Part shown: one piece after another, positions 3,495 through 62,165 of the stretch
Layout: each line of letters begins with the position of its first letter
Numbering within the stretch: position 1 is the stretch's first letter
Assembly: GCA_963781585.1 (NCBI GenBank)
Contig: CAWAGQ010000003.1
Span: 32,001 to 96,000 of the forward strand
Direction: 5' to 3'
Length of the DNA stretch: 64,000 nt
From: an uncultured Gemmatimonadaceae bacterium
GTDB taxonomy: Bacteria; Gemmatimonadota; Gemmatimonadetes; Gemmatimonadales; Gemmatimonadaceae
Program-made: the position numbers and the translations under genes
Notes under the pieces: generated by a model
Told to the model about the DNA's origin: nothing
The model's database searches: none
Seen by the model: the letters and a program-made list of their open reading frames with translations, nothing else

Positions 3495-4979
3495 TCAGCC
3501 GGCGTCGCGAGCCCAGGACAGGGTGGCGCGCACCGCCCGCTGCCATCCCGCGTACCACGCCTTGGCCGCATTGCTGTCCGCCCCCGGTACGAAGGTGGTC
3601 ATCTGCCGCGCGCCGAGGAAGTCTTCCGGCGACCGCCAGAGGCCGACGGCGATCCCCGCCAGACCCGCCGCGCCTAACGCGGTGGTCTCGACCACCGCGG
3701 GGCGCTCCACCGGCAGCCCGAGGACGTCGGCCTGAAACTGCATCATCCAGTCGTTGGCCGCGGCGCCGCCATCCACCCGGAGCCGGTCGACGGGCGCCGT
3801 CACCAGCGGCCGCATGGTCTCGAGCACGTCACAGGTGCCGTAGGCCATGGCCTCCAGCGCCGCACGCGCCAGATGCGCGCGCGTCGTGCCGCGCGTCAGT
3901 CCGACGATGGTGCCGCGCGCGGCGGGCTCCCACTGCGGCGCCCCCAGCCCTGCCAGGGCGGGAACGAAATACACGCCGTCGTTCGAGGTCAGGGACCGCG
4001 CCAGCGACTCCGTCTCCGCGGCGGTCGACACCACCCCCAGCCCATCGCGCAGCCACTGCACCGCGGCACCGGCAATGAAGATCGCCGCCTCGAGGACGTA
4101 CACCGGACCGCCTGACGCATCACACCCGAGCGTGGTGAGCAGACCACCGGCGCTCGGCGGACGTTCGGTACCCGCGTTGAAGAGCAGAAACGCACCGGTG
4201 CCATACGTGTTCTTGCCCTGTCCGGGCAACCAGCATCCCTGACCGAACAACGCCGCCTGCTGGTCTCCCGCAACGCCGCGAATGGGAATCGACCCGCCGA
4301 AGTGTTCGGGCGCGACCACGCCAAAATCACCCGAGGAACGCCGCACCTGCGGCAGCACCGCCGGGTGAACACCGAACAGACGGCAGAGCGTGTCGCTCCA
4401 CTGTCGCCGGTCGATGTCATACAGCATGGTCCGCGACGCGTTGGTGGGATCCGTGGCGTGGACCGCACCGTTCGTCAGGCGCGCAATGAGCCAGCTGTCG
4501 ATCGTGCCGGCGGCCAGTTCGCCGCGCGCGGCGCGCGCTGCCAGCGCCGGCTCCTGAAGCCGGAGCTCGAGCTTGGTCGCCGAAAAGTAGGGATCCACCA
4601 CCAGGCCGGTAATGCCATGGATCTCGGCGGCGCGAGAGGCCAGCTCGGCACAGCGCCCGGCGGTCCGTCGGTCTTGCCACACGATCGCCCGGCCGATGGG
4701 AACCAGCTTCTCGCGATCCCACACGACCACCGTCTCGCGCTGGTTCGTGATGCCAATGGCGACCGGCATCGCGCCAGCTTGCGCGATCGCCTCGCGCCCC
4801 GCCTCGAGCGTGCGCGCGAAAATTTCGTCCGGGTCGTGTTCCACCCAGCCAGGCCGCGGATAGTACTGCGGAATCTCCCGATAACCGCGTCCGCGCACGC
4901 TACCATCCGCAGCGATCACGAGACAGGTCGTCCCGGTGGTGCCCTGATCGATGGCAAGGACCGTGTCGACGGCAGTCAT
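3495..4979 (-). CDS. glpK: Glycerol kinase
   Basis: AIDQGTT, GITNQRET, AIVWQDRRT, DPYFSATK, GDQQAALFG, KNTYGTG motifs. Confidence 0.95.
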   Translation of the reverse strand: MTAVDTVLAIDQGTTGTTCLVIAADGSVRGRGYREIPQYYPRPGWVEHDPDEIFARTLEAGREAIAQAGAMPVAIGITNQRETVVVWDREKLVPIGRAIVWQDRRTAGRCAELASRAAEIHGITGLVVDPYFSATKLELRLQEPALAARAARGELAAGTIDSWLIARLTNGAVHATDPTNASRTMLYDIDRRQWSDTLCRLFGVHPAVLPQVRRSSGDFGVVAPEHFGGSIPIRGVAGDQQAALFGQGCWLPGQGKNTYGTGAFLLFNAGTERPPSAGGLLTTLGCDASGGPVYVLEAAIFIAGAAVQWLRDGLGVVSTAAETESLARSLTSNDGVYFVPALAGLGAPQWEPAARGTIVGLTRGTTRAHLARAALEAMAYGTCDVLETMRPLVTAPVDRLRVDGGAAANDWMMQFQADVLGLPVERPAVVETTALGAAGLAGIAVGLWRSPEDFLGARQMTTFVPGADSNAAKAWYAGWQRAVRATLSWARDAG

Positions 4980-5007
4980 GGCGGAGGTCGTCGAGGGGGG
5001 CCCGCAA

Positions 5008-6036
5008 TCACCGCGCGAAATGGAACGGAGCCCGGGATACACCCCGGTCGGTCACGATTGCCGTGACCAGCGCGGCCGGAGTGACGTCGAAGGCCGGCGT
5101 GTAGGCGGGCACGTCGTCAGGTGCGATCGAATGGCCGGCCAGAGAGCGCAGCTCACCTTCGGGGCGGCATTCGATCGCGATGTCGGCGCCCGTGAGTGTA
5201 TCGGGATCGAGCGTGGACGTGGGCGCGGCCACGTAGAATGGAATCCCGTGGTGGTGCGCCAGCGTGGCGAGCCCGTACGTGCCGATCTTGTTCGCCACGT
5301 CGCCGTTGGCGGCGATCCGGTCAGCGCCCACAATGCACGCGTCCACGAGTCCCCGGGCCATGAGACTGCCCGCCGCGCTGTCAGCGAGCACGGTGACCGG
5401 AATCCCGGCGCGGGAGAGCTCCCAGGCGGTGAGGCGGCTCCCCTGCAGCAGCGGCCGCGTTTCCGTGGCGAAGACCTGCACGCGCCAGCCTCGTTCGGCA
5501 GCCAGGTACACCGGGGCGAGCGCGGTGCCGATGCCGCCGGTCGCGAGCGCGCCGGCGTTGCAGTGCGTGAGCACGCGGACGCCGTCGCGCAGGAGCGTGA
5601 TCCCGAATTCTCCGATCCGGCGACACATGGCGCGGTCCTCGTCCAGGATGGCGGTCGCGGCGGCACGCATCCGGGCGAGCAGCGCTGGCGCATCCGGCGC
5701 GTCACCCGCCGCTACGGCGAGCATGCGATCGACGGCCCATGCGAGATTGACCGCGGTGGGCCGGGCGTGCCGAACGCGCGCGGCAGCCTCGGTCAGTCGG
5801 CGCCGAAAGGCGTCGATCGGCACGTCGGTCGATTCGCCCATGACCGCCACGAGGCCCATCGCCGCACAGATCCCGATCGCCGGCGCGCCGCGCACGGCCA
5901 GCGTCCCGATCGCCTCGCTGATTTCCTCGACCGTGCGCAGGTCCTTCTCGACGAGGCGACTCGGCAGCTGGCGCTGGTCGATGATACGCACCGCGTTCCC
6001 GTCGGGAGCCCAGCGGACCGCTTCGATGACGTGCAC
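5008..6036 (-). CDS. mtnA: S-methyl-5-thioribose-1-phosphate isomerase
   Basis: VRGAPAIG, RPTAVNL, LTHCNAGALAT, ETRPLLQGSRLT, GADRIAANGDVANKIGTY. Confidence 0.95.
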   Translation of the reverse strand: MHVIEAVRWAPDGNAVRIIDQRQLPSRLVEKDLRTVEEISEAIGTLAVRGAPAIGICAAMGLVAVMGESTDVPIDAFRRRLTEAAARVRHARPTAVNLAWAVDRMLAVAAGDAPDAPALLARMRAAATAILDEDRAMCRRIGEFGITLLRDGVRVLTHCNAGALATGGIGTALAPVYLAAERGWRVQVFATETRPLLQGSRLTAWELSRAGIPVTVLADSAAGSLMARGLVDACIVGADRIAANGDVANKIGTYGLATLAHHHGIPFYVAAPTSTLDPDTLTGADIAIECRPEGELRSLAGHSIAPDDVPAYTPAFDVTPAALVTAIVTDRGVSRAPFHFAR

Positions 6037-6054
6037 GAGAGAATTCTAGCGACT

Positions 6055-6283: not shown

Positions 6284-7063
6284 ATGCCCTACTCGCATCT
6301 CATCCTGACGGTGCACGAGCATGTCGCGACGGTCACGATCAATCGACCCGACAAGCTCAACGCCCTCACCAGCGACCTGGTCGGCGAGCTCGACCGTGCC
6401 ATTCTCGAGATCAGGGATCGCGACGACGTGGGTGGCGCGATCATCACCGGCGCCGCGCGGGCGTTCGTCGCCGGCGCCGACATCACCGAACTCACCCGGC
6501 TGCGCGAGAGCGGCGCGCGGGACTTCGCCACCAGGGGTCAGGCGGCGTTCAACCGCATCGAGTGGTCCACCAAGCCGATCGTGGCTGCCGTGAACGGATT
6601 CGCGTTAGGCGGTGGTTGCGAGCTGGCGATGGCGTGCCACGTGCGGATCGCGGCGGACACCGCCCGGTTTGGACAACCCGAGGTGAAGCTCGGCATCATC
6701 CCCGGTTACGGCGGCACCCAGCGCCTGCCGCGACTGGTGGGTCGGGGCCGCGCGCTGGAACTGCTGCTCACCGGCGAGCTGGTCGACGCGCAGGAGGCGT
6801 TGCGCATCGGGCTCGTCAATCGCGTGGTGCCCGCGGGCGAGCTTCTGACGGCGGCCGAGACGCTCGTTCGACAGATGCTCGCCAACGCGCCGCTGGCGGT
6901 CGGTTCGTGCATCGAAGCGGTCAACCGCGGGGTCGACCTGCCGCTCGCCGACGGGCTCGCGCTCGAGGCAGGCCTGTTTGCCGTGCTCGCTCGCAGCAAG
7001 GACATGGCCGAAGGCACCGCGGCGTTTCTCGAGAAGCGCACCCCGCATTTCACCGGACGGTGA
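6284..7063 (+). CDS. Enoyl-CoA hydratase/isomerase (crotonase family)
   Basis: INRPDKLNAL, AFVAGADI, AAVNGFALGGGCEL, FGQPEVKLGIIPGYGGTQRL. Confidence 0.93.
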   Translation: MPYSHLILTVHEHVATVTINRPDKLNALTSDLVGELDRAILEIRDRDDVGGAIITGAARAFVAGADITELTRLRESGARDFATRGQAAFNRIEWSTKPIVAAVNGFALGGGCELAMACHVRIAADTARFGQPEVKLGIIPGYGGTQRLPRLVGRGRALELLLTGELVDAQEALRIGLVNRVVPAGELLTAAETLVRQMLANAPLAVGSCIEAVNRGVDLPLADGLALEAGLFAVLARSKDMAEGTAAFLEKRTPHFTGR

Positions 7064-8261: not shown

Positions 8262-10682
<2,421 letters not shown>

Positions 10683-11116: not shown

Positions 11117-12478
11117 CTAGTCGTTATGCACCAGCGGCTCAGCGGGCTCTTCCAGATACAGCTCGGCGCCGGCCGCGGTGACGCGATGCGAGATCAGCGG
11201 CAGCGGCAGATCGGCCTCATCTTCGATCCGGATGGCCGCCTCGAGCGCGGCGCGCCCGGCAGCGACCCCCGCCCCGTCCCGGGCGAAGATCGTGGCCAGC
11301 GGCTCCCCCTGGCGGACCAGGTCGCCGGGTCTGGCGCCGATCACGAATCCCACGCTGGGATCCACCTCGTCGTCCACCCGCCGCCGCCCACCGCCAAGGG
11401 CCACCACGCCGCGCCCCACCTCGCGCGGTTCCACGCACGCCACCACGCCGTTCCGACGCGCGGTGAACAGCTCGCATTCGCGCGACTGCGGCAGCCGCGA
11501 GGGATCGTCCACCACGCCTGGGTCGCCGCCCTGCGCCTCCACGATCTCCTGGAACTTCTCGGCCGCCCGCCCCGACGAAATCGACACTTCCATGGCGCGA
11601 ATCGCCGCGTCCCGCGTGTCGGCAGCGCCTGCCAGCACCAGCATTTCCGCGCCTAACGCGTACAGGACACGCATCAGATCGGGCGGCCCTTCGCCCCGCA
11701 GCGCATACGCCGCCTCCTCCACCTCGAGCGCGTTGCCACAGGCGCGACCAAGCGGCCGGTCCATCGCCGTGACCAGTGCCACCACCGGGAGACCGTGGTC
11801 GCGCCCCAACGCCACCATCTGGTGCGCCAGTGCCAACCCCCGGTCCACCTCGGGCAGAAAGGCTCCCGATCCGCGCTTCACATCGAGCACCAGACCGGTC
11901 AGTCCTTCGGCCAGCTTCTTGCTCATGATGCTGGCGGCCATGAGCGGAATGCTCTCCACAGTCGCTGTGGCGTTGCGGAGATCGTACAAGCGACGATCGG
12001 CCGGCGCGATCTCATCGCTCTGCCCCATCAGCACACACCCGATGCGCTCGAGCTGGTCTCGCGCCTCCCGCAGCGTCAAGCGCGTTCGAAATCCGGGGAT
12101 GGACTCGAGCTTGTCGAGTGTCCCGCCCGTGTGGCCGAGACCGCGCCCGGACATCATTGGGACGCAGACCCCAAGTGATGACACCAGCGGCGCCAGCACG
12201 AGCGAGACCTTGTCACCCACCCCGCCGGTCGAATGCTTGTCGACGCGAGGCCGCGCCAGATCGGAGAGGTCGAGCGAGGCGCCGCTGGCCACCATCGCTT
12301 CGGTGAGCGCCGCCGTCTCCTCGCGATCGAGTCCACGGATGAAGATCGCCATCAGGAGCGCCGCCATCTGATAGTCGGGGATCCGCTCCTGCAGAAATTC
12401 CCCCAGCAGCTCGCTCCATTCCTCCGGCGCGATCCGGCCGCCGTCGCGCTTCCGTTCGATCAGGCGATTGGCGACCAT
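11117..12478 (-). CDS. pdp: Thymidine/pyrimidine-nucleoside phosphorylase
   Basis: IERKRDG, DKHSTGGVGDK, SGRGLGHTGGTLDKLESIPG, SIMSKKLA. Confidence 0.93.
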   Translation of the reverse strand: MVANRLIERKRDGGRIAPEEWSELLGEFLQERIPDYQMAALLMAIFIRGLDREETAALTEAMVASGASLDLSDLARPRVDKHSTGGVGDKVSLVLAPLVSSLGVCVPMMSGRGLGHTGGTLDKLESIPGFRTRLTLREARDQLERIGCVLMGQSDEIAPADRRLYDLRNATATVESIPLMAASIMSKKLAEGLTGLVLDVKRGSGAFLPEVDRGLALAHQMVALGRDHGLPVVALVTAMDRPLGRACGNALEVEEAAYALRGEGPPDLMRVLYALGAEMLVLAGAADTRDAAIRAMEVSISSGRAAEKFQEIVEAQGGDPGVVDDPSRLPQSRECELFTARRNGVVACVEPREVGRGVVALGGGRRRVDDEVDPSVGFVIGARPGDLVRQGEPLATIFARDGAGVAAGRAALEAAIRIEDEADLPLPLISHRVTAAGAELYLEEPAEPLVHND

Positions 12479-15748: not shown

Positions 15749-17848
<2,100 letters not shown>

Positions 17849-17859: not shown

Positions 17860-18420
17860 ATGCCAGAGTCGATCGATCATACCGCTCACCCCATGCTCTC
17901 GCTCACGCGGGCGTCGCTGCTCTCCCTGCGTGCGGCCCTGCTGCGCGACAGCGGTCCACGGGCCGCGGTGGCCCTGCAGGAAGCCGGCTACGCTGGCGGC
18001 GACTCCCTGTTCGCGGCGTTTCGGCGATGGCTTGCGGCCCGTTCCGATATCGCCGCCGAGGATCTCGACGTCGAGACCTTCGAGCAGCGGATCTCGGAGT
18101 TTTTCGGCGAGACGGGATGGGGCCACATCCAGATCGGCACGATCGACCAGGTAGTGGCGACGCTCGACTCGGCCGACTGGGGCGAGGCCGACGACGCGGA
18201 GCAAACCGATCATCCCGCCTGCCACATCACGACCGGCATGTTCGCCGATCTGTTCGGACGTCTGGCCGGCGCTCCGGTGGCCGTCCTGGAAGTGGAATGC
18301 CGTTCGGCCGGGCATCCCCGGTGCCGCTTCCTGGTCGGGAATCCGGAGATGATGGACGCCGTCTACGACGAGATGGGACGCGGCGCCACCTACCAGCTGG
18401 CGGTGCACGCCGCCGCCTAA
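17860..18420 (+). CDS. V4R-domain protein
   Basis: 'FFGETGWG', 'CHITTGMF', 'VLEVECRSAGHPRCRFLV'. Confidence 0.85.
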   Translation: MPESIDHTAHPMLSLTRASLLSLRAALLRDSGPRAAVALQEAGYAGGDSLFAAFRRWLAARSDIAAEDLDVETFEQRISEFFGETGWGHIQIGTIDQVVATLDSADWGEADDAEQTDHPACHITTGMFADLFGRLAGAPVAVLEVECRSAGHPRCRFLVGNPEMMDAVYDEMGRGATYQLAVHAAA

Positions 18421-18435
18421 CGCTCCCCGGCGCTC

Positions 18436-23098: not shown

Positions 23099-23761
23099 CT
23101 ATCGCGCCCGCGAGAGGGGAACCGGTCTGGTCGGCGACGCGGTGCGTTCACCCACCCACCACGCCTGGTCGCGGGCGAGCTCGCGTACATCCGGCGGGAG
23201 CGGCGTGCCCGCCGGTGCGACGACGCGCCCCCCCGGCCGCACCGCGCGCAGGGCGTCCGCGACCAGCGTCGGGTCCTGTGCCACCGCCTGGTCGATGGCG
23301 GTGCCGCGCGCGCACTCTGGCGCGAGCGGCATGCGCCCATCGACCAGGACGATCGAGACGCCGTCGCCGGGGGCGACCGAGTGCGGCGGATTGACCAGCA
23401 GGCATTCTGCGTCGTAGGCCGCGAACAGCGCGCTCGCCAGCGTGCCCCAGCCACCGGTCAACAGGTAGGGCCCTCCCGGCGTCCGGATGTCGAGGAGCGC
23501 CGCGGCGCGCAGCAGCGCCTCATCGTCGGGCGCGCCGGCGTCGGCGTGGATCGTTCCGGCGGCGCCCTCGGGCGCCTGTCGCCCCTGGACGCCGCGAAAG
23601 TCGGCCACGTAGTCGCGAATCGGGTACCGCGCCGAGCAGACCGGGCAGCCTAACGAGCCGGAGGCGATGTAGCGCCCCTCCTGCCGATCGATGCTGGCCA
23701 CCAGCCCGGAGGGCTCGTGCGCTTCGACGCAGCGAAGCGCGCCGACCAGTTCGATGTGCAT
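23099..23761 (-). CDS. Trm112-like zinc-knuckle N-terminus fused to a degenerate methyltransferase-like domain
   Basis: 'LRC..H..L..GSLGCPVCSARYPIRDYVADF'; C-terminal 'ALRAVRPGGRVV'; TGATG overlap with the SDR stop. Confidence 0.65.
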   Translation of the reverse strand: MHIELVGALRCVEAHEPSGLVASIDRQEGRYIASGSLGCPVCSARYPIRDYVADFRGVQGRQAPEGAAGTIHADAGAPDDEALLRAAALLDIRTPGGPYLLTGGWGTLASALFAAYDAECLLVNPPHSVAPGDGVSIVLVDGRMPLAPECARGTAIDQAVAQDPTLVADALRAVRPGGRVVAPAGTPLPPDVRELARDQAWWVGERTASPTRPVPLSRAR

Positions 23762-24480
23762 CACGCCCTCGCCAGGCGGATCTCTTCGATGTCGACGTCG
23801 GGCGGCCTGGTGACCGCGTACAGCACGGCGTCGGCGACCGCCTCGGGTCGCAGCATCCGTGCACGGGGGGTGAGACCCGCGCGCTGGCCGGGATCGACGC
23901 TGTCCCACATGGTCGTATCGACCGGCCCCGGAGACACCAGCGAGACCCGGATGCCGCTGTCGCGCAGTTCCTCGCGCAGCACTTCGTGCACGGCGCGCGC
24001 CCCGAACTTGCTGGCCGCATAGGCCGCGTTGCCCGGGAACGCCCGGTGATCGGCGATCGACCCCACGGTCACCACCTGCCCGGTTCCGCGTTCGCGCATC
24101 TGTGGCAGCAGCGCGTTTACGAGGCGGTACGGCGCCAGGAGGTTCACCCCGAGCAGGCGCGCGAAGTCCTCGGGCGGCAGGGACCCCACCGGGGCGAGGA
24201 CGAACAGGCCGGCGTTCTGCACCAGCACGTCGGGCGCCCCGCCGAGGAGTTGCCGCATCTCGGCGAGCGTCGCGTCCACGTCGTCGCTGCGGGCGAGGTC
24301 GCAGCCCACGGCACGCGCCAGTCCGCCTAACGACTCGGCGGCCGCGGTCAGGCGCGGCGATTCCCGCCCGAGCAGCAGCGTGCGCGCCCCCGCGCCCACC
24401 AGCGCGCGAGCAATGGCATAACCGATCCCGCGCGACGCCCCGGTCACCAGCGCGGTCCGTCCCTCGAGGACCTCCGTCAT
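23761..24480 (-). CDS. Short-chain dehydrogenase/reductase
   Basis: VTGASRGIG, LVQNAG, catalytic YAASK. Confidence 0.92.
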   Translation of the reverse strand: MTEVLEGRTALVTGASRGIGYAIARALVGAGARTLLLGRESPRLTAAAESLGGLARAVGCDLARSDDVDATLAEMRQLLGGAPDVLVQNAGLFVLAPVGSLPPEDFARLLGVNLLAPYRLVNALLPQMRERGTGQVVTVGSIADHRAFPGNAAYAASKFGARAVHEVLREELRDSGIRVSLVSPGPVDTTMWDSVDPGQRAGLTPRARMLRPEAVADAVLYAVTRPPDVDIEEIRLARA

Positions 24481-29157: not shown

Positions 29158-30344
29158 TCCGGCTCCGTCGACACCGCCAGCGCCGATTTCTCGGCCGAAT
29201 CCGCTTCCCTGAGGTAGCGCAGCCCGAGCTCCACGAGCTCTTCCCGGTCGACATCGCTCTGGATCGGGCGGTTGCGCAGCTTGTCGCGCACGATCTCCAC
29301 CAGCGAGGGACGCCGACCCGGCGCGCCCGACGCCGACGTGCGGTGTACTTCCGGCCGCCGTGCATCCAGTTGAAAGTGCAGGGCGCGCCGCCGGTACTCG
29401 CGCAACAGCCGATGATCCAGCTCGCGAGCCACGTGACGCGGGATGTCCTGGATCACTTGTCGCACGATCTTCTCTTCGATGCCGCCCGCGACCTGATCGA
29501 CGTTGGCCCGGATCGCGGCGTCGATGTCGGCGGCGGTCTGGGCGCGCGCGCGCACCACCGGGAGATCCACCAGGCCGCGGGCCGACCTGATGCGGTGGAA
29601 GGTCCGTTTACCCGTCTCCAGGTCGAACTCCACCATCCCCTTGCCGCCCAGACGCAGCGCCTTTTCCTCGGCCTGCTCGCCCCAGATGTTCGAACTGGTA
29701 TACTCGATCGCTCCGGAGTAGAACGCGTTAGGCTTGATCTCGTGATATACGTGGTAGTGTCCCAGCGCCTGGTAACTCCATAGCGACGAGCGCAGCTCGG
29801 CAGGATCGAGCTGGCGCGCCGCGCGCTCGGGATCGGAGCCTGCCGGCACGATGCCCGCAACCGGACCGTGGATCACGAGGACGTTCCAGCGGAAGTCGGG
29901 ATCCGGACCGAGCACCACCTTCCCGACCGCATCGCTCGGCACCGCGAACACGGAGAGATCGCGCTCCGGGAACGAGATACGCCTGGCCTCCATGTCTGCC
30001 ACGTGGATGCCCAGTGGAATGAACAGCCGGAGGATGCATCCCGCCTCGACCGATCGGGGCGTATCGTGATTGCCAGCGACGATCACGACGATCGTGTCCG
30101 GGAGGGCGTGGACCAGGCGCGAGAACTGTGTGAACGCGTGCAGAATGGCCGGATTGGACGGCCGCACGTTGTGGAACACATCGCCCGCGATGCAGACAAT
30201 GTCCGGACGCAGCGCAATGATGCCATCGATCGCGTCGCGAACGGCGGACGCGACGTCTGCCTCCCGCTGGTTGATGCCGGCGGGAGTCTGCCGTTGGAAT
30301 TGCCGGTGCCCGAGGTGAAAGTCAGAGAGATGTACGAGACGCAT
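29154..30344 (-). CDS. sbcD: Mre11/SbcD nuclease
   Basis: HLSDFHLG, AGDVFH, AGNHD, IHG, ALGHYH phosphoesterase motifs; GTGA overlap with sbcC. Confidence 0.92.
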   Translation of the reverse strand: MRLVHLSDFHLGHRQFQRQTPAGINQREADVASAVRDAIDGIIALRPDIVCIAGDVFHNVRPSNPAILHAFTQFSRLVHALPDTIVVIVAGNHDTPRSVEAGCILRLFIPLGIHVADMEARRISFPERDLSVFAVPSDAVGKVVLGPDPDFRWNVLVIHGPVAGIVPAGSDPERAARQLDPAELRSSLWSYQALGHYHVYHEIKPNAFYSGAIEYTSSNIWGEQAEEKALRLGGKGMVEFDLETGKRTFHRIRSARGLVDLPVVRARAQTAADIDAAIRANVDQVAGGIEEKIVRQVIQDIPRHVARELDHRLLREYRRRALHFQLDARRPEVHRTSASGAPGRRPSLVEIVRDKLRNRPIQSDVDREELVELGLRYLREADSAEKSALAVSTEPE

Positions 30345-35613: not shown

Positions 35614-36831
35614 TTACGGAGTCGTTAACGCACTGTCGCGCAGTGCGTTCCAGAGCCGAACCACCCGGCGCACTCCCTCCACCACCTCCGACTCGGCCGC
35701 GGCGTACGACACCCGGATCCAGTCCGGCGCGTGGAACGCGGAACCGGGCACCACCGCCACCCCCTCGTCGTCGAGGAGCCGTGAGGCAAATGCGGAACCC
35801 GCGTTGCCCCCGAGCGCCGTCTCGCCGACGAGCAGGAACAGATAGAACGCCCCCTCGGGCCTAACGAACTGGAGCTCGGCAGCCTCGCCCAGGATCCCGA
35901 GAGCGGCGTCCCGGCGCCGCCGATATTCCGCGACCATGCGCCCGATGGCGCGCTGCGCCTGGTCCCGCTCGGTGAGCCCCGCGAGCGCCGCGTGCTGCGC
36001 CACTGTCGTGGCGTTCGACGTGGTGTGTGACTGCAGGGCCGTCATGGTCGCGGCAACCCGCGACGGCGCGATGCCCCACCCGACTCGCCACCCGGTCATC
36101 GCATACGCCTTGGCCATGCCATCTACTACAACAAGGTTGTCTCGCGCCTCGGCGACCGACAGGACACTCGCCGCCGCTCCGTCGTAGGCGATCTGTCGAT
36201 AGATCTCGTCGCTGATGACCCACAGCCCGCGTTCGGCAGCGAACCGCACGATGGCGCCCAGCTCATCCCGCGAATAGACGGCGCCGGTGGGATTGCTCGG
36301 CGAGTTCAGCACGACGCCGCGGGAGTGCGGCGTGCACGCCCGGCGGAGGTCGTCCGCGCTCACCTTCAGGCTGTGGTCCGGATCGCCGAACACTCGCACC
36401 GGCACTGCCCGCGCGAGCTCGATCATCTCGTAATAACTCGTCCACGCCGGCGTGGGCACCAGCACTTCGTCGCCCGGTCCGAAGAGCACGAAACAGGCGT
36501 TGAAGAGAGCCTGCTTCGACCCGGTGCTGACAACGACGTCGCGGGGGTCGATCGATCCGCCCGTCAGAGTCAGCTCGGCGGCGCGGGCCGCAATGGCCTG
36601 TCGCAGGGGGAGGATCCCCTCGACCGCGGTGTACTTCGTGGCACCCTCGTCGAGGGCACGCTGCGCAGCCCGACGGATGAAACCCGGCGTCTCGAAATCC
36701 GGCTCGCCGGCGCCAAGATCGATCACCCGATGCCCAGCCGCTTTCAGCGCACTCGCCTTCTGCGACACGGCGATGGTCGCCGATTCACGCAGTCGCGCTA
36801 CGTTGCCCGATGGATCGTAGGTCCTTTCCAT
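35614..36831 (-). CDS. PLP-dependent aminotransferase class I/II (aspartate aminotransferase-like)
   Basis: LGAGEPDF, LNSPSNPTG, ISDEIY, AKAYAMTGWRVG, PEGAFY. Confidence 0.93.
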   Translation of the reverse strand: MERTYDPSGNVARLRESATIAVSQKASALKAAGHRVIDLGAGEPDFETPGFIRRAAQRALDEGATKYTAVEGILPLRQAIAARAAELTLTGGSIDPRDVVVSTGSKQALFNACFVLFGPGDEVLVPTPAWTSYYEMIELARAVPVRVFGDPDHSLKVSADDLRRACTPHSRGVVLNSPSNPTGAVYSRDELGAIVRFAAERGLWVISDEIYRQIAYDGAAASVLSVAEARDNLVVVDGMAKAYAMTGWRVGWGIAPSRVAATMTALQSHTTSNATTVAQHAALAGLTERDQAQRAIGRMVAEYRRRRDAALGILGEAAELQFVRPEGAFYLFLLVGETALGGNAGSAFASRLLDDEGVAVVPGSAFHAPDWIRVSYAAAESEVVEGVRRVVRLWNALRDSALTTP

Positions 36832-41319: not shown

Positions 41320-44211
<2,892 letters not shown>

Positions 44212-45362: not shown

Positions 45363-46334
45363 ATGGGCGGATTCCTCGTTCGCCGTCTGGCGCAGGGCGT
45401 GGCGATAGTCTTCGTCGTCGTGACCGTCAGCTTCGCGCTCATTCACGCGGCGCCGGGCGAGCCGTTCGCCGCCGTGCTGCAGGATCCGCGCGTGACCCCG
45501 GAGCTGCGCGATGCCCTGCGCGCACGCTATGAACTCGATCGGCCCCTGTTCGTCCAATACACGCGTTTCCTGTCGCGCACGGCCCGCGGCGACCTGGGGA
45601 CCTCGTTCACCTACCAGCGCCCGGTCCGTGAGGTGCTGGGGGCGGCCATTCCGAATACGCTCCTGCTCATGTCGACGGCACTCCTGGGGAGCTTCGCGTT
45701 AGGCATCGGACTCGGAGCCGCCCAGGCAGCGCGCCCCGGTGGCTGGTTCGACCGCCTCACCGACGGAGCCGCGGTCGTCGTCTCGGCCATCCCCGACTTC
45801 TGGCTCGCCCTCGGCGCCATTCTGCTCTTTGCCTATCGCCTGCCCCTGGCGCCACCGGGCGCGATGACCGATCCGGTGATGCACGATCTCTACTCGCCGG
45901 TCGGTCGCCTGATCGACGTGCTGAAGCACCTGGTCCTTCCCGCCGGCACCCTCACCCTCGTGATGGGTGCCGCGATCGCCCGCTTCCAGCGCGCGGCCCT
46001 CCTGGAAGTCCTGCCTGACGACTACATCCGAACCGCCCGGGCCAAGGGCGTTCCCGAACGCCGCGTACTGTACCGGCACGCCCTGCGCAATGCCGTGCTC
46101 CCCACCATCACCCTCGTCGGACTCGCGTTCCCCGCGCTGCTCGGTGGCGCTGTGTTCGTGGAGACCGTGTTCGCGTGGCCCGGGATGGGTCGCCTGGCGG
46201 TCGACGCGCTCGCGACGCGCGACTATCCGCTCGTCCTGGCGGCAGTCATGGTAGCCGGGGCCATGGTCGCCGTGGGCGGAATCCTCGCCGACATGCTGTA
46301 CGCCGCCGCCGACCCGCGCCTGCGCCGTGCCTGA
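45363..46334 (+). CDS. Dpp/Opp ABC transporter permease (DppB-like)
   Basis: GDLGTS, 'DYIRTARAKGVPERRVLYRHALRNA', VETVFAWPGMG. Confidence 0.93.
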   Translation: MGGFLVRRLAQGVAIVFVVVTVSFALIHAAPGEPFAAVLQDPRVTPELRDALRARYELDRPLFVQYTRFLSRTARGDLGTSFTYQRPVREVLGAAIPNTLLLMSTALLGSFALGIGLGAAQAARPGGWFDRLTDGAAVVVSAIPDFWLALGAILLFAYRLPLAPPGAMTDPVMHDLYSPVGRLIDVLKHLVLPAGTLTLVMGAAIARFQRAALLEVLPDDYIRTARAKGVPERRVLYRHALRNAVLPTITLVGLAFPALLGGAVFVETVFAWPGMGRLAVDALATRDYPLVLAAVMVAGAMVAVGGILADMLYAAADPRLRRA

Positions 46335-48278: not shown

Positions 48279-49408
48279 CCGGTTCGGTGGGTCCTCGACC
48301 CGGCACGCGCGAACCGGCTGACGACGTCCCCGGTGCCCTGGACGCGCCGCTGCTCTCCGTGCGTCGCCTGAAGAAGCACTTTCCGGTGCGAGCCGGGATC
48401 TTTGGTCGGGCGTCAGGCACCGTGCGGGCCGTTGACGGCGTGAGCCTCGATATCGCGGCCGGCGAGACGTTAGGCATGGTTGGCGAGTCGGGGTGCGGGA
48501 AGACCACCCTCGGCCGCACCATTCTGCGACTCGTCGAACCTACCGCCGGCGACATCCGCTACGACGGTGTCGATCTGCGCGCGCTGCGGGGCGGCGCGCT
48601 CCGCGCCATGCGCCGCAATCTCCAGATCATCTTCCAGGACCCCTTCTCCTCGCTCAACCCCCGGATGACCGTGGGCGCCACCGTGCGCGAGGGGTTGACG
48701 GTACACCGGCTCGCCGAAGGCGCGGACGCCGATCGGCGGGTACGGCAGCTGCTGGAGGAGGTCGGGTTGCGGCCCGAGTACGCGTCGCACTATCCGCACG
48801 AATTCTCGGGTGGCCAGCGGCAGCGCATCGGCATCGCGCGCGCGCTGGCCGTGCAGCCGCGCTTCATCGTGTGCGACGAGCCGGTGTCGGCGCTCGACGT
48901 GTCGGTGCAGGCGCAGGTCGTCAACCTGCTGAGTGACCTGCAGCGCGACCACGGCCTGACCTACCTGTTCATCGCCCACGACCTGTCGATCGTGGAGCAC
49001 ATGGCGAACCGGGTGGCGGTGATGTACCTGGGTCGCCTGGTGGAATTCGCGGACGCGGCGGCGCTCTACGCAGAGCCCCTGATGCCCTACACCCAGGCGT
49101 TGCTCTCCGCGGTTCCGGTGCCGGATCCGGTCACGCGTCGCTCGCGCATCGTCCTGGCCGGCGACGTGCCATCGCCCGCCAACCCTCCCAGCGGGTGCGT
49201 CTTTCACCCGCGGTGTCATCATCCGGCCCGGGACGCGTCGTGTGCCCGGCTCGTCCCACCGCTGGAGGAGAAGGCGCCGGGCCATTGGGTAGCGTGTATC
49301 AAGCAGCCACCCGGCGCCGTGAGCTGGGAGGCGCAGCAGGAAGCGGGTGGCACGAATCGCCCCGAGCGATACCTGCCGGCCATCGCACGTCCGCGCGATG
49401 GTGCCTAG
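48275..49408 (+). CDS. Dpp/Opp ABC transporter ATPase (DppF-like)
   Basis: [40 protein letters not shown]. Confidence 0.94.
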
Positions 49409-49657: not shown

Positions 49658-51409
<1,752 letters not shown>

Positions 51410-51434: not shown

Positions 51435-53144
51435 TCACGGCCAAACAAACACGCTCGCTGGAATCACCCGCTCGCGAATGCCGCGCACGTCGTTGGGCTC
51501 GGTCCAGAATGTCCTGGTGTGATCGCCGTTGCTGAATCGGAGCTCCCAGCGTGCACCCCCGTCACGCCGGACGGGTACGGCCAGGTCGAGGCGCCAGAGG
51601 CGCTGGGATCCCGGTGGAATCGCGCAGAGAATCCCCACTCCGACCGACGGCTCCCATGGCGTGTCGCGCCCGAGAGCGGCATCACCTGCCCAGAGCTTCC
51701 CCCCATCGATGAAGAACGCCACGCCGGCGTCGGCCGTGCCACGTATGGTACCGACGCGCCACCGCTCCTCGGCCCGGGCGACCAGCCGCTCGCCGCCACC
51801 CAGCCTGGCGTCTCCGTAGCCGCGAACCCCGCCCCGTCCATCGCCTAACGAGAGCTGGAACGGAAGCTCCTGGCGCCAGGCACCGGCAAACTCCACGCTC
51901 CCCACCACCGTGTGACGACGGTGCGGTTTCAGATACCAGCCCAGGCGGCCGCTTACCAGTACGCCTCGCGCGTGCCGCGTGTCGGCGTTGCGCCGCCCTT
52001 CAGCTCCCAGTTCCACTGCGGCAAATGTCGTCGGCGAGCCCACGCCCCCGTACAGCGTGGCCGCGGTGAACCAGTCGGAGCGGGACCGGCCGCCAATCCC
52101 CAACCCGCGCCCCACCGTCAGGCCCAGCTGAAAACCGCGCCGCACGTCCTGCACCCCGTTCAGCGCGTCAAAGCCCACCACGCGAAGGAAGTTGACCTGC
52201 CGGTACCCGAGCAGGAGGTTGAGCCGCGTGGCGTGATAGGACGAAAACCGATCCATCAACGCGCTCGTCGTGTCGGCCACCACCCCGGAATCGGTGACCA
52301 GCACCGGGCCGATCTCCGGCGTCGTCGCTTCCGCCGAGAACGATGCCCCGATCAACCCCAGATGTCCGGCAGCGCCGACCCGCACACCGGCCCCCATGTC
52401 GAAGTAGGCGCGGTGCAGACCGACTCCAAGCACCGGGCGACCCGGCGAGCGAAACGGCACCAGGTCCTCGCTCCCTCCGCCGGACACCCGCCACGCACGC
52501 GGCTGTGCGTCGGTAAAAAACGGGTACGAGACGCTCGTCGCCACGTCGTAACCGTGATCGAACCGAGCCGCCCTCACCTGCAGCTGATACGGCCGCCGGA
52601 ACAGCTGGTAGTTGGTGTATCGGCCCAGAAACGTGTCCCGGTAGAAGTGTCCCTCACGCCACCCTGCCACGGCATAGATGCCCTTGCCTTCGAGGTTGGC
52701 GTTCCCGAAGGTCAGCGCCCGCAGAAAGGGAGCGGTGTTCGTCAGCCCGATCGATCCGACAACGGCCGGCTCGTCGACCGTGACCACCTCGATCCGGACG
52801 CTGTCCCCATCGGCGACCGTGGCGACCGATGCGTCCGCGAGAAACGGCTGCGCCCTCAACACGCGCGCCGTCTCGCGAACGAGGAACTCTGAGCAGGGCT
52901 CGCCCGGCTGAAGAAGCACGAAATTGCGGACCACCGAGGGCGCAGTGGCGACGTGCATCGACGTGACCAGACGCCCCAGAAGAGGCGAACGCGTGAACAG
53001 CCCGCCATACGATGGCGCGTGCGACCGGATCACAACCTGCGAAACCCGCCGTCCCTCGCAAGGTTGCCCGGGTTGCGCTCCCTGAGCGAGCAGCGCGCCA
53101 GGCGTCGCCGCCAGCGCCAGCCGAACCGCAGCCGGGAACCGCAG
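51435..53144 (-). CDS. Omp85/BamA-TamA-like outer-membrane protein (POTRA-like plus beta-barrel)
   Basis: 'ETARVLRAQPFLADA', 'NANLEGKG', 'GVRGY', 'LWRLDLAVP'; signal-peptide-like N-terminus if CTG 53144 is the start (first canonical start is GTG 53033). Confidence 0.75.
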   Translation of the reverse strand: MRFPAAVRLALAATPGALLAQGAQPGQPCEGRRVSQVVIRSHAPSYGGLFTRSPLLGRLVTSMHVATAPSVVRNFVLLQPGEPCSEFLVRETARVLRAQPFLADASVATVADGDSVRIEVVTVDEPAVVGSIGLTNTAPFLRALTFGNANLEGKGIYAVAGWREGHFYRDTFLGRYTNYQLFRRPYQLQVRAARFDHGYDVATSVSYPFFTDAQPRAWRVSGGGSEDLVPFRSPGRPVLGVGLHRAYFDMGAGVRVGAAGHLGLIGASFSAEATTPEIGPVLVTDSGVVADTTSALMDRFSSYHATRLNLLLGYRQVNFLRVVGFDALNGVQDVRRGFQLGLTVGRGLGIGGRSRSDWFTAATLYGGVGSPTTFAAVELGAEGRRNADTRHARGVLVSGRLGWYLKPHRRHTVVGSVEFAGAWRQELPFQLSLGDGRGGVRGYGDARLGGGERLVARAEERWRVGTIRGTADAGVAFFIDGGKLWAGDAALGRDTPWEPSVGVGILCAIPPGSQRLWRLDLAVPVRRDGGARWELRFSNGDHTRTFWTEPNDVRGIRERVIPASVFVWP

Positions 53145-58388: not shown

Positions 58389-59344
58389 GGGCCGGCGAAG
58401 CCGACGTCTCGCGCATTCGCACCGTACCGATTGCGCGCCGGCAGAACAAGGTGAGCGCGGAGGAATTCGCGCACCCGCCGGGCGACGATCGCTCCTTCGG
58501 TGCGTTCCTGAAGGCGCTCCCCGACGTGCTTGCTGCCCGGGATTTCCGAGTGGTCGTGGGGGCCGTTGCGGGCGCAGCGCGGCGCCGGCGCGGCGTCATC
58601 GTCATGCTTGGCGGGCACGTCGTGAAGACCGGGCTCACCCCGATCCTGATCGACCTGATGCGCCGCGGCGTCGTCACCCACGTGGCGATGAACGGCTCGG
58701 CGGCCATTCACGACTACGAGGTGGCACGATTCGGCGCCACTTCGGAGGACGTGGCCGCAGGGCTCCGCGATGGCACGTTCGGGATGGCCGAGGAAACCGG
58801 ACAGGGCATGAACACGGCCATCTCGGGGGGCCGGAGACAGGGTCTCGGGATGGCCGAGGCGATCGCCGCCGCACTGGAGCTCGAGCCGGAGCTGGCACAC
58901 CCGGAGCTGTCGCTCCTTCTGGGATGCCGGCGGCTGGGCGTGCCGGCGACCGTCCACGCGGCGTTAGGCGCGGAGATCGTGCACCAGCATCCGTCGGCCG
59001 ACGGGGCCGCCATTGGCGACACCAGCCTGCGCGACTTCCGCCGGCTGGCGGGCGCCATCCCCACCCTGCACGACGGCGGGGTGGTCCTCAACATCGGAAG
59101 CGCCGTCATCATGCCCGAGGTCTTCCTCAAGGCGTTGACCATCGCGCGCAACCTGAACGACGGGCGACCCGTCGATTTCACCACCTGCGATCTCGACATG
59201 CTGCGGCACTATCGCCCGCGCGCGAACGTGGTCCAACGGCCAACGCTCGCCGGCGGCGCCGGCTACGAGCTCACTGGCCATCACGAAATCATGGTGCCCC
59301 TGCTCGCATGGGCGGTGGTTGAGGCGCTCGACCAGGGGACCTAG
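58385..59344 (+). CDS. Deoxyhypusine-synthase-like (DHS fold) protein
   Basis: 'VMLGGHVVKTG', 'HVAMNGSAAIHD', 'NIGSAVIMPEVFLKA', 'GHHEIMVPLL'; first canonical start is GTG 58451, proposed start ATA 58385. Confidence 0.75.
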   Translation: MGAGEADVSRIRTVPIARRQNKVSAEEFAHPPGDDRSFGAFLKALPDVLAARDFRVVVGAVAGAARRRRGVIVMLGGHVVKTGLTPILIDLMRRGVVTHVAMNGSAAIHDYEVARFGATSEDVAAGLRDGTFGMAEETGQGMNTAISGGRRQGLGMAEAIAAALELEPELAHPELSLLLGCRRLGVPATVHAALGAEIVHQHPSADGAAIGDTSLRDFRRLAGAIPTLHDGGVVLNIGSAVIMPEVFLKALTIARNLNDGRPVDFTTCDLDMLRHYRPRANVVQRPTLAGGAGYELTGHHEIMVPLLAWAVVEALDQGT

Positions 59345-59439: not shown

Positions 59440-59512
59440 GGTCCCAGGAATTCCGCTCATCCGTATCAACCGGCGCGGGCTCCGCTCCGGGCCGCCGATC
59501 GGGTGCGGCTGC

Positions 59513-61039: not shown

Positions 61040-61121
61040 ACCCCTGGCAGGCAGCCCGGGCGATCGCACACGACGAGGTGCGCGGGCACCGTGTTTTTCC
61101 GGCGCGGCTGGCCGCGGCAAG

Positions 61122-62165
61122 GTGGGAAGCGTGACGTCGGCGGTACGGAAAGCGAAGCAGAAGCCTGACCCGGTGGCCGACGCGCCCGCCGCCGCGGACG
61201 GCGCGCTGCGGCATCGACTGCTGCGGGCCATGCTGCTGCAGCGACGCTTCGAGGAGCGCTGCGCGGAAGCGTACGCGTTAGGCCGCATCGGCGGATTCTG
61301 TCATCTGTACATCGGACAGGAAGCCGTGGGCACCGGTGCGATTTCGACCATTCGCCCCGACGACTATGTGATCACGACCTATCGCGACCATGGCCAGGCG
61401 CTGGCCCGCGGCGTCGCGCCGAGGGCGGTCATGTCCGAGGTCTTCGGGCGGGTGGACGGATGCGCGCACGGGAAGGGCGGTTCGATGCATCTGTTCGACC
61501 GCTCGGTGAATTTCCTTGGCGGCCATGGTATCGTGGGTGGACACATCCCGCTTGCCGCGGGCGTCGGGTTCGCGGTCAAGTATCGGGGCGGCGACCAGGT
61601 CTGCCTGTGTTTCATGGGGGAATCGGTGGTCAACACCGGCGCTTTCCACGAGGCCCTCAACATGGCCGCCCTGTGGAAGCTTCCCGTGGTGTACCTGATC
61701 GAGAACAATCGCTACGGGATGGGCACGGCGGTCGAACGCGCGTCGTCCATCCACGACATCTACATGCGCGCCGCGTCGTACGACATGCCCCGCGGCGTGG
61801 TGGACGGTCAGGATGTCATGGCGGTCCGCGATGCAACCGCCGAGGCGGTCGACCGCGCGCGCGCTGACTCCGTCCCCACACTCCTGGAAGTGCGCACGTA
61901 TCGGTTCATGGGCCATTCCATGTCGGATGCGGTCTCCGGCACGTATCGATCAAAGGCCGAACTCGAAGAGTACATGAAGCGCGATCCGATCATGGTCCTT
62001 CGGATGCGCATGCAGGAAACGGGGGAGATCGATGACGCGGGGATGAGCAAACTCGACGAGGAGGTCAAGGCCGAAGTGCAGGACGCCTGGGACTTCGCCG
62101 AGGCCAGTCCCGAGCCGCCGGTGGAGAGTCTGCTCGAGGACGTGACCGTTGACACGACCACCTGA
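61122..62165 (+). CDS. pdhA: Pyruvate dehydrogenase E1 alpha
   Basis: IGGFCHLYIGQEA, YRDHG, GKGGSMH, ENNRYGMGT, TYRFMGHSMSD; start uncertain. Confidence 0.95.
   Translation: MGSVTSAVRKAKQKPDPVADAPAAADGALRHRLLRAMLLQRRFEERCAEAYALGRIGGFCHLYIGQEAVGTGAISTIRPDDYVITTYRDHGQALARGVAPRAVMSEVFGRVDGCAHGKGGSMHLFDRSVNFLGGHGIVGGHIPLAAGVGFAVKYRGGDQVCLCFMGESVVNTGAFHEALNMAALWKLPVVYLIENNRYGMGTAVERASSIHDIYMRAASYDMPRGVVDGQDVMAVRDATAEAVDRARADSVPTLLEVRTYRFMGHSMSDAVSGTYRSKAELEEYMKRDPIMVLRMRMQETGEIDDAGMSKLDEEVKAEVQDAWDFAEASPEPPVESLLEDVTVDTTT

Follow-up and report, generated by a model that had tools for sequence, protein, structure and literature searches.

The window, a 64,000-nucleotide stretch of a contig from an uncultured Gemmatimonadaceae bacterium, contains 19 exact copies of an octamer, GCCTAACG (reverse complement CGTTAGGC), which is non-palindromic, as can be read from the sequence directly. 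Eleven copies read GCCTAACG and eight read CGTTAGGC on the + strand. An exact-match scan recovered every copy where the first-pass annotation had placed it, together with the additional GTTAGGC at 9836 and the one-base variants at 8938, 11122, 16918, 25653, 25673 and 39635. All 19 copies overlap a called gene, by gene calls that are crude and GC3-based, and they do so in differing frames, as had been claimed: 13 as xCG TTA GGC, three as CCT AAC, one as GTT AGG and two as GCC TAA stops, namely the stop already reported at 18415 and a second one at 24325. The copies and one decayed site are listed below, where (+) stands for GCCTAACG and (-) for CGTTAGGC on the + strand; G000 is the genome under study, G001 a genome of the same genus, G016 a genome of another genus and G003 a motif-poor genome.

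3672..3679 (+): copy; gene on - strand, GCG TTA GGC (Ala-Leu-Gly); exact word in G001 and G016, GCCGAACG in G003
6603..6610 (-): copy; gene on + strand, GCG TTA GGC; kept in G016, absent from G001 and G003
8299..8306 (+): copy; short called ORF, GCG CCT AAC GAT (Pro-Asn); no alignment obtainable in relatives
11651..11658 (+): copy; gene on - strand, GCG TTA GGC
16074..16081 (-): copy; gene on + strand, TCG TTA GGC; one-mismatch form GCCTAGCG in G001
18415..18422 (+): copy; TAA stop (GCC TAA CG) of gene 17860-18420
23648..23655 (+): copy; gene on - strand, TCG TTA GGC
24325..24332 (+): copy; TAA stop of called ORF 23986-24330
29726..29733 (-): copy; gene on - strand, AAG CCT AAC GCG (Pro-Asn)
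32743..32750 (+): copy; gene on - strand, GCG TTA GGC
35859..35866 (+): copy; gene on - strand, TTC GTT AGG CCC (Val-Arg)
41959..41966 (+): copy; gene on - strand, TCG TTA GGC; kept in G001 and G016
45697..45704 (-): copy; gene on + strand, GCG TTA GGC
48468..48475 (-): copy; gene on + strand, ACG TTA GGC; kept in G001 and G016
50125..50132 (+): copy; gene on + strand, AAG CCT AAC GTG (Pro-Asn)
51252..51259 (-): copy; GCG TTA GGC in the same + strand gene as the 50125 copy
51491..51498 (-): decayed site; CGTTGGGC (TTG) in G000, exact word in both G001 and G016
51843..51850 (+): copy; gene on - strand, TCG TTA GGC
58962..58969 (-): copy; gene on + strand, GCG TTA GGC
61276..61283 (-): copy; gene on + strand, GCG TTA GGC; kept in G016

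In 100 dinucleotide-preserving shuffles of the window, the word appeared 0.92 times on average and four times at most, and none of the 100 reached 19 copies. The whole genome carries 1442 copies (about one per 4 kb), compared with 50.6 expected under an order-3 Markov model, a 28-fold excess that places the word first among all 8-mers of G000 ranked by over-representation. Called coding sequence holds 1069 copies, compared with 43.3 ± 6.3 (maximum 56) in 20 within-gene synonymous-codon shuffles, an excess of about 25-fold, so that the over-representation noticed in the first pass exceeds chance under both null models. One-mismatch forms show a graded enrichment in G000, up to 5-fold, with none depleted, and their comparison indicates that all eight positions of the word are needed and that the eighth base is strongly required. 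The same graded enrichment of mismatch forms is described for uptake sequences (PMC1939737). No flanking consensus was found around the copies in G000, which extends the absence of conserved flanks from the window to the genome, and literature searches found no published description of the word.

The enrichment concerns the DNA word and not the protein, since each of the four open frames of G000 exceeds its codon-usage expectation (observed-to-expected ratios of 80, 11, 19 and 12); both stop-codon frames are enriched as well. Of the [SPTA]-Leu-Gly sites 16% carry the word, as do 33% of those reading x-Pro-Asn-[VADEG], and the word supplies 41 of 260 TAA and 57 of 1069 TAG stops in G000, 98 in total. 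It explains most TTA codons of these genomes: 13 of the 23 in the window genes lie inside the word, and 691 of the 1247 genome-wide stand in the CG-TTA-GGC context, in agreement with the earlier remark that TTA codons are concentrated in the motif. The copies are placed uniformly along gene length in G000, and wobble phase 1/4/7 predominates among them.

Between G000 and G001, 36 of 47 sites are conserved, as compared with a fraction of 0.38-0.47 for random 8-mers (p = 2.5e-5), and wobble identity is 134/141 (95.0%) inside the word versus 1057/1396 (75.7%) in the flanks (p = 5e-9). At lost sites the other genome has a one-mismatch form. In the comparison with G016, however, one region retains 3 of 52 sites, the same as random, and the window region retains 6 of 17. 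Conservation at orthologous positions, a question raised by the first-pass annotation, is thus found within the genus; between genera, sites turn over and conservation is inconsistent. In a survey of 301 genomes of the phylum, high abundance of the word was confined to scattered lineages within a single order, with rich and poor members inside one genus and densities ranging from one per 0.8 kb down to baseline. Order-level comparisons were made on 41 genomes, 14 rich and 27 poor. No hyper-abundant 8-mer that could represent an alternative 'dialect' word of poor relatives was seen in a sample of G002.

These data bear on a neutral origin, in which a functionless word would be the by-product of context-specific mutation or of biased, VSP-like mismatch repair. 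Dcm/Vsr repair distorts oligonucleotide frequencies in E. coli, a Dcm-Vsr module is present in G000, and wobble phase 1/4/7 predominates. A drive acting on one position, however, could move at most the mass of its precursor (~250-900 copies) and would leave it empty. This is not observed: none of the one-mismatch neighbours is depleted, the depleted T-for-C neighbour word of VSP repair was not found in G000, and the requirement extends over the full octamer. Moreover, C5 methylase and Vsr each occur in 5 of the 41 genomes, of which two and one, respectively, are among the 14 rich ones; the module of G000 itself sits in a motif-free island; and sites are better conserved than their flanks between G000 and G001. 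A neutral by-product is extremely improbable, being already largely refuted.

Both orientations are equally frequent in G000 (718 forward and 724 reverse), and the strand skew of 56% results from gene orientation, which predicts 54%. A complete relative with four replicons gave a ratio of 94:105 on its sampled chromosome with no replichore pattern, and its megaplasmids and 21-kb plasmid are equally word-dense. The first-pass argument against a replichore-polarised Chi/KOPS-type signal is thereby strengthened, as orientation follows that of the genes only. Close pairs of copies are avoided: in G000, relative to the exponential expectation, the frequency is 0.22-0.34 for gaps below 300 bp and 0.59 for those of 300-500 bp, a deficit of short gaps that was not seen in control words. 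Eight of 1425 gaps are shorter than 100 bp, and inverted pairs within 20-130 bp occur at 11 loci. Long gaps of 8-12 kb are found at 0.66 of expectation, and the overall spacing CV of 1.0 in G000 is due to a tail of long gaps; in G009 the CV is 0.82, and 1.5% of gaps are below 100 bp versus 11% expected. Motif-free stretches of G000 include 62%-GC islands with atypical codon usage, and the word is scarce in islands of atypical composition; motif-free stretches of 20-39 kb with native composition also occur.

The word could be a protective self tag that restrains an accessory helicase-nuclease or defence system, much as Chi does but irrespective of orientation; selection would then favour a copy every few kb in any genome exposed to that system. 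The word is asymmetric and, at one per 4 kb, comes near the density of Chi in E. coli, the deficit of 8-12-kb gaps and the avoidance of close pairs are consistent with it, all replicons of one cell are tagged, and a mobile accessory system would fit the patchy distribution. Nevertheless, polarity with replication is lacking, 20-39-kb motif-free stretches of native composition are tolerated, and RecC was not found in G000. Strong AddAB-type PDDEXK matches were obtained in 12 of the 41 genomes, 10 of these motif-poor, and in none of the rich genomes G000, G005, G009, G013, G015 and G016. We know of no orientation-independent system of this kind, and we consider the explanation very unlikely.

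A second possibility, modelled on HIP1 in cyanobacteria, is that selection maintains the octamer because some abundant protein with a chromosome-organising, repair or epigenetic role binds or modifies it, and not because of uptake. HIP1 is described as hyper-abundant in all frames, with sites conserved beyond neutral expectation, and as a 15- to 300-fold over-represented octamer whose function was long unknown (PMC5861425). All-frame hyper-abundance and site conservation are seen here as well, the short-range repulsion would fit a bound protein whose spacing is steric or cooperative, and the word occurs on all replicons of the complete relative. G000 also encodes adenine methylases of the MmeI/Eco57I type, which recognise asymmetric 6-8 bp sites. 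However, no tested methylase family tracks the word. In addition to the C5 methylase, an order-wide Eco57I-like orthologue, itself still a possible cognate methylase, is present in 39 of the 41 genomes; its tree agrees with that of the species, the rich/poor label changes 10 times on it, which does not improve on shuffled labels, and none of its alignment columns is specific to rich genomes. An N4/N6 beta-class methylase was not found in G000 or G001, nor was Dam in G000. An essential chromosomal role is also ill-suited to the contrast between rich and poor members of one genus. The preference of the first-pass annotation for a DUS-like, HIP1-like or protein-binding word therefore stands as a set, whereas its methylation variant has lost support among the tested methylases. 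A HIP1-like binding or modification site is unlikely. A 2026 preprint proposes that HIP1 is a methylation-dependent uptake signal and reports that type IV secretion system proteins correlate with it, so this explanation may merge with that of an uptake tag; VirB4, a core component of that secretion system, was found in 1 of the 41 genomes and does not track the word.

The integron core site is given as GTTRRRY and the inverse core as RYYYAAC (PMC3053210). The 7-base core GTTAGGC fits GTTRRRY exactly, as its complement fits RYYYAAC, and a 24-kb sister-family array, in which at least 26 attC sites recur every 500-750 bp or so, has GCCTAAC as R'' and CGTTAGGC as R'. About 0.4% of 8-mers contain GTTRRRY, which makes a chance match unlikely, although the comparison is post hoc. 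The word could accordingly be the R-box of the integron-type tyrosine recombinases of the order, with dispersed copies arising or persisting through recognition, either by short-patch conversion of near-cognate sites in abortive strand exchange or as docking sites of a domesticated recombinase. Full-length integron integrases are unusually common, with 26 of the 41 genomes, including G000, over the curated cut-off. They do not track the word, however: 8 of the 14 rich and 18 of the 27 poor genomes have one, six rich genomes have none, the densest genome has fragments only and the motif-poor G294 has two or three integrase copies. Furthermore, orthologous precursors (CTC, CTG and TTC codons) usually lack the GTT needed for cleavage, and the strongly required eighth base lies outside the R-box duplex in aligned attC sites. 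As the first-pass annotation had observed, the core matches while cassette structure is absent, the dispersed G000 copies lying outside attC hairpins or arrays; imperfect palindromes between an RYYYAAC inverse core and a GTTRRRY core, at cassette ends in arrays beside intI, were found only in the sister genomes. We know of no such conversion process and regard an integron origin of the dispersed copies as quite unlikely.

Tentatively, we favour the interpretation of the word as a DNA-uptake-sequence-like self tag with a putative reader. It would constitute a roughly evenly spaced, genome-wide tag on double-stranded DNA, maintained because selection or molecular drive acts on the word as such; any frame able to carry it would be used by way of rare codons (TTA, CCT, CTA, AGG), and conservative amino-acid changes would also accommodate it in coding sequence. 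The likeliest reader would be the natural-transformation and recombination machinery: word-bearing fragments would be preferentially taken up or recombined, alleles with the word would then spread, a nearby second copy would contribute little, and newly arrived foreign DNA would be without the word. We infer that an uptake or recombination process reads the word and that its specificity comes from an accessory component, repeatedly gained or lost. ComEC was found in 40 of 41 relatives, and G000 encodes DprA, a ComEA-like HHH_3 protein, two secretins and 15 type IV pilin-like genes. ComEC is equally frequent in motif-poor genomes, so the presence of the machinery does not discriminate, and, within one genus, rich and poor members appear to have equivalent pilin sets. 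The dedicated DUS receptor of Neisseriaceae is the minor pilin ComP; a search of the 41 genomes for ComP_DUS (PF16732) gave a sole match over the cut-off, in a motif-poor genome, and otherwise sub-threshold pilin-like matches that do not track the word. The repulsion scale of a few hundred bases is shorter than would be expected from kb-sized uptake fragments, and the exact match to the integron core site is left unexplained by an uptake tag. The literature search found no paper on uptake sequences in Gemmatimonads, and we know of no report of natural transformation, and of no transformation system, in this phylum.

A bolder proposition, which we judge unlikely, is that the word marks a third independent genome-tagging system, in which an accessory reader that is gained and lost drives an integron-core octamer into thousands of genic positions. 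The DNA of the cell, cassettes included, would then be recognised as self in uptake or recombination by a reader outside ComP, Dcm/Vsr, RecBCD/AddAB, T4SS and the canonical integrase, and this would be the first link between integron recombination sites and uptake-sequence biology. To our knowledge, no genome-tagging system is known in this phylum. Selected words of such abundance are known in only a few cases (Neisseriaceae, Pasteurellaceae, cyanobacteria and the Chi/KOPS systems), and each has led to a mechanism by which DNA is taken up or repaired or chromosomes are handled; a signal of this kind now appears in Gemmatimonadales, which are abundant and poorly studied soil bacteria. Rich and poor species within one genus, the range of densities and the complete four-replicon genome provide natural contrasts by which the reader should be findable through phylogenetic profiling and its function testable in uptake assays. 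For practical purposes, the word offers a strong marker by which these genomes can be binned and foreign DNA in them spotted.

Among known systems, Chi and KOPS/AIMS are likewise asymmetric, over-represented 8-mers embedded in genes, but the word is not co-oriented with replication, and the Chi partners RecC (in G000) and AddAB-type nucleases (in most rich genomes) were not found. HIP1 (GCGATCGC) shares the over-represented octamer, the occurrence in coding sequence in any frame and the conserved sites; however, it is a palindrome, has known cognate methylases and is phylum-wide, whereas the Gemmatimonad word is asymmetric, is tracked by no tested methylase and is restricted to scattered lineages of one order. 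Integron attC/attI sites share the exact GTTRRRY core, and true attC arrays of sister genomes end in CGTTAGGC, but the 1442 dispersed copies have no partner inverse core, hairpin, array spacing or neighbouring intI and lie inside conserved housekeeping genes, where they differ by substitutions without indels. From the DUS of Neisseriaceae and the USS of Pasteurellaceae (collectively DUES) the word differs in that rich genomes have no ComP-type receptor match over the cut-off, in that it has no flanking extension or AT-tract, in that terminator-forming inverted pairs, common in DUS/USS, are almost absent, and in that its distribution is patchy even inside one genus, the sampled poor relative having no dialect. 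It resembles them in being a short non-palindromic word present hundreds or thousands of times, once every 0.8-4 kb, equal in both orientations and mostly genic, in the frames able to encode it; in its graded mismatch forms, more-even-than-random spacing and scarcity in foreign DNA; and in its confinement to related lineages that encode uptake genes.

All 19 exact copies of GCCTAACG/CGTTAGGC claimed for the window in the first-pass annotation were recovered by an exact-match search, each at its coordinate, and 100 dinucleotide-preserving shuffles of the window averaged 0.92 copies and never exceeded 4. The window corresponds to G000:C3:32001-96000. Also confirmed were the reading frames, the TAA stop at 18415, the one-base variants and the further GTTAGGC at 9836; the copy at 24325 is a second one in the window that supplies a TAA stop. 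Across the source genome (G000; a 5.72-Mb draft of 17 contigs with 67% GC) the octamer occurs 1442 times (718 forward, 724 reverse), with a density of one copy per 2.9–5.2 kb on each contig. An order-3 Markov model predicts 50.6 copies, and under this model the word ranks first among all 8-mers by (O-E)/sqrt(E). A maximum-order Markov model leaves it unflagged because its 7-mers are equally enriched; that model was set aside, and the order-3 Markov, codon-usage and synonymous-shuffle nulls were relied on. The maximum-order ranking in G000 is led by another word family, represented by AGGCCAAA/TTTGGCCT (331 observed vs 149 expected) and AAAGGCCA/TGGCCTTT (368 vs 196).

A crude GC3/GC1>GC2 rule called 3485 genes, covering 76% of the genome. 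Inside them lie 1109 copies, evenly spread along the genes, and the 333 further copies outside called genes have the same density.

Readings of the octamer among the 1109 copies in called G000 genes
xCG TTA GGC: 689 copies
xxG CCT AAC G: 251 copies
xGC CTA ACG: 70 copies
xxC GTT AGG C: 53 copies
Two stop-containing frames: 46 copies

The four open frames were observed 691, 55, 71 and 252 times, where codon usage predicts 8.6, 4.9, 3.7 and 20.4, respectively. Measured against codon-shuffled and Markov expectations, the check set beforehand, the counts are far above both: 1069 coding copies vs 43.3 ± 6.3 in within-gene synonymous shuffles (n = 20), and 1442 vs 50.6 genome-wide. The concentration of TTA codons in the CG_GGC context, noticed originally in the window, extends to the whole genome, with CG_TTA_GGC accounting for 691 of the 1247 TTA codons; a tRNA-Leu(UAA) gene is present. 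The word also supplies 41 of the 260 TAA stops and 57 of the 1069 TAG stops. Within genes, CGTTAGGC is in excess on the sense strand (769:340) because the number of peptides able to host each frame differs. It is the DNA word on which the force acts, in either orientation relative to transcription.

No conserved flank was found within ±12 nt of the copies, where codon periodicity alone was seen, in agreement with the earlier reading of the window. One-mismatch forms are graded, with ACCTAACG at 5.4 times expectation, GCATAACG at 4.7, GCCTGACG at 3.6 and GCCTAACA at 3.5, and forms altered at word position 2 or 7 do not exceed expectation; these two positions are thus strict, and positions 1, 3, 5 and 8 tolerant. 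A search of G000 for a depleted one-mismatch neighbour returned none. On this ground a single-position mutational drive (for example, VSP repair) was rejected, and an origin of the word in neutral biased repair is hardly probable at all. Inverted pairs of the word, or of a one-mismatch variant, occur at 11 loci in G000, two of which (G000:C4:201891-201995 and G000:C4:657711-657852) enclose tRNA-gene-like sequences.

The claim that the copies lack replication polarity was borne out. In 50-kb windows with |GC skew| >0.02, the G-rich strand carries CGTTAGGC at 346 of 614 copies (56%); genes are co-oriented in 892 of 1458 cases (61%), and this co-orientation combined with the 69% sense share predicts 54%. 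In G305, a complete four-replicon relative, 18 chromosome samples of 20 kb contained 94 forward and 105 reverse copies and showed no replichore pattern. In G305 the 21-kb plasmid (8 copies per 11 kb) and both megaplasmids (30 and 33 per 40 kb) carry the word at or above chromosomal density.

Gaps between copies in G000 are exponential-like in mean and CV, yet close pairs are missing: observed/expected ratios are 0.22 at 0–100 bp, 0.34 at 100–200 bp, 0.26 at 200–300 bp and 0.59 at 300–500 bp, with a mild excess at 1–4 kb and a tail beyond 20 kb. For GCCGAACG and GCCTGACG, used as controls, no short-gap deficit was seen. In a 127-kb sample of the rich relative G009 (one copy per 0.87 kb), the CV is 0.82 and gaps below 100 bp make up 1.5% vs 11% expected. 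The variant GCCTGACG, with 1519 copies in G000, behaves in the opposite way to the main word and is clustered at short range (gaps <100 bp 6.7% vs 2.7% expected); its relative prominence is greater in G016, a low-density genome, where 470 kb contain 153 copies of it and 33 of the main word.

Among the longest motif-free stretches are two 62%-GC regions (G000:C5:~276000-360000 and G000:C8:~284000-360000), which have few word copies, nearly no GC3-type genes and one pilin-like gene each, and align with one another at 81–87% identity along some 60 kb. They could represent a mobile element that was duplicated and then diverged, or foreign DNA that was co-assembled; contamination of the G000 bin is 7%. 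Depletion in islands, proposed as a check in the first-pass annotation, applies to these two regions; some native-looking stretches of 20–39 kb are motif-free too. One stretch of 38.7 kb (G000:C4:866742-905435; 66% GC, 87% GC3-type genes) has native composition and zero copies.

Sites were compared between G000 and G001, of the same genus, in 166 orthologue pairs with a wobble identity of 75%. The exact word is kept at 36 of 47 aligned sites (random 8-mers 0.38–0.47; p = 2.5e-5), and at 14 of 17 in the window alone; non-conserved partners are mostly one-mismatch forms. Wobble identity is 134/141 inside the word vs 1057/1396 within ±45 nt (p = 5e-9). In G016, which belongs to another genus (54 copies/Mb, wobble identity 44% to G000), 6 of 17 sites are conserved in the window region (random 0.06–0.07) and 3 of 52, no better than random, in a separate 400-kb region; long-term conservation is therefore weak or uneven, and the conservation across orthologues raised earlier as a check holds for G001 but only unevenly for G016. 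Orthologous positions in motif-poor genomes carry ordinary codons, CTC, CTG or CTT (Leu) or TTC (Phe), so the word was made in place by synonymous or conservative substitutions, without indels. In the G000/G001 lineage it is under active maintenance; over longer times it undergoes turnover.

With rich genomes defined as those having at least 150 copies, 14 of 41 relatives are rich (from 173 copies up to 6360 in G009) and the 27 others have at most 65. In an even sample of 301 genomes from the phylum, rich genomes are confined to the order of the window (12 of 70 in family f1; 5 of 125 in family f2, all five belonging to one genus), and none was found among 103 genomes from nine other families, where the highest count is 70. 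Genus g51 includes two species with 3896 and 4141 copies and a third with 66. On an RpoB tree of 35 genomes, G000, G001, G016, G015 and G009 form a clade (support 99) in which all are rich, and the remaining rich genomes are scattered; the rich/poor label, defined by word count itself, changes 6 times, with at least 4 changes forced by well-supported branches. The unpublished genomes G008, G086, G125 and G204 enter counts and trees as motif-poor rows only. No hyper-abundant 8-mer of its own was found in 200 kb sampled from motif-poor G002, and the poor/rich pattern is therefore not a dialect set. The patchy distribution, including the within-genus contrast, suggests that the specificity factor is accessory.

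None of the families tested by presence/absence across the 41 relatives tracks the word.

Candidate determinants in the 41 relatives
C5 methylase (PF00145): 5/41 genomes, not tracking the word
Vsr (PF03852): 5/41 genomes, not tracking the word
N4/N6 beta-class methylase (PF01555): 21/41 genomes, none in G000 or G001
AddAB-type PDDEXK (PF12705): strong matches in 12 genomes, 10 of them poor
AddAB-type genes: G003, G004, G006, G011, G019-G021, G023, G026, G032, G034, G035
ComEC (PF03772): 40/41 genomes
ComP_DUS (PF16732): one genome over cut-off, poor
VirB4 (PF03135): 1/41 genomes
Integron integrase (TIGR02249): over cut-off in 26/41 genomes
G000:C6:144469-147708 (L107): Eco57I/MmeI-type methylase in G000
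G000:C2:157766-161029: paralogue of this methylase

Searches of G000 detected no Dam, no RecC and no strong AddAB-type match. Within the order, the paired helicase-nuclease genes of AddAB type have a patchy distribution and occur mostly in motif-poor genomes. An orientation-free tag that protects DNA from an accessory nuclease is highly unlikely to be what the word represents. An Eco57I/MmeI-like adenine methylase (PF07669; about 1050–1100 aa) is full-length in 39 of the 41 genomes of the order; it matches a TaqI_C-like specificity domain weakly, below threshold. The protein was fetched from these 39 genomes, G015 being dropped because its match is a different paralogue, and it did not track the word: its phylogeny agrees with that of the species and shows no grouping of rich genomes, and at no alignment column are rich and poor sequences separated. 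Such conservation and vertical evolution are unusual for a restriction-modification-type enzyme. A HIP1-like site with a chromosomal or epigenetic role is an unlikely reading of the word. A Dcm-type C5 methylase and a Vsr match share a single 790-aa open frame (G000:C7:476304-478676) in a lower-GC segment of 24.6 kb (G000:C7:457886-482458) that is free of the motif. The core transformation genes of G000 comprise ComEC, DprA, a ComEA-like protein, two secretins and 15 pilin-like genes. No rich-only pilin was found in g51, where rich G241 and G298 and poor G294 have comparable pilin sets.

Motif-poor f2 genomes carry the word in same-strand runs with a spacing of about 500–750 bp. A giant repeat gene was rejected as the reading of these runs, which are integron cassette arrays; no ORF of at least 600 aa was found in G027:C95:1-26000 (L187/L188), an array of at least 26 attC sites in 24 kb on one strand. 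Ten aligned units of it show a textbook attC (elements as defined in PMC3053210), which has CGTTAGGC as its core, GCCTAAC as its inverse core, paired L boxes and a variable loop. The integrons of the order thus use an R-box identical to the dispersed word. Long arrays were also seen at G027:C43, G027:C80, G025:C3, G097:C12 and G101:C55, all in motif-poor genomes of the sister family. G000 itself encodes a full-length integron integrase (G000:C7:185885-186829; 434 bits vs a cut-off of 265), and no attC repeat family was detected within about 45 kb of it. The GTTRRRY match without cassette structure, pointed out earlier, was confirmed, as no attC partner, hairpin or array was found at dispersed G000 copies. 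A functional link between the word and the integron recombinase is decidedly unlikely: about 0.4% of 8-mers contain GTTRRRY, which makes a chance match improbable in what is a post hoc comparison, but integrase presence does not track the word (8/14 rich, 18/27 poor), and the integrase was found in all five further genomes tested, including poor G294.

Frame and orientation independence, graded mismatches, lack of polarity, avoidance of redundant close copies, rarity in foreign DNA, constraint at individual sites and lineage restriction together fit a word that is selected or driven as DNA. In the literature searched, neither GCCTAACG nor CGTTAGGC occurs as a word, Gemmatimonad is never paired with 'uptake sequence', and GTTAGGC is never paired with integron. 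Added here are the null from synonymous shuffles, the repulsion at short range, the survey across the phylum, the rich/poor contrast inside one genus, the constraint at wobble positions, the profiling of ten candidate readers with negative outcome and the connection to genuine attC arrays. ComP is the receptor of DNA uptake sequences (DUS), and with ComP_DUS over cut-off in only one, poor, genome among the 41 relatives, placing the word in the DUS/ComP family is not supported. The closest working model, held tentatively and by analogy, is nevertheless a DNA uptake sequence, like which the word would work. Uptake sequences show a graded mismatch pattern as described in PMC1939737, and the graded mismatch forms of the word resemble this pattern.
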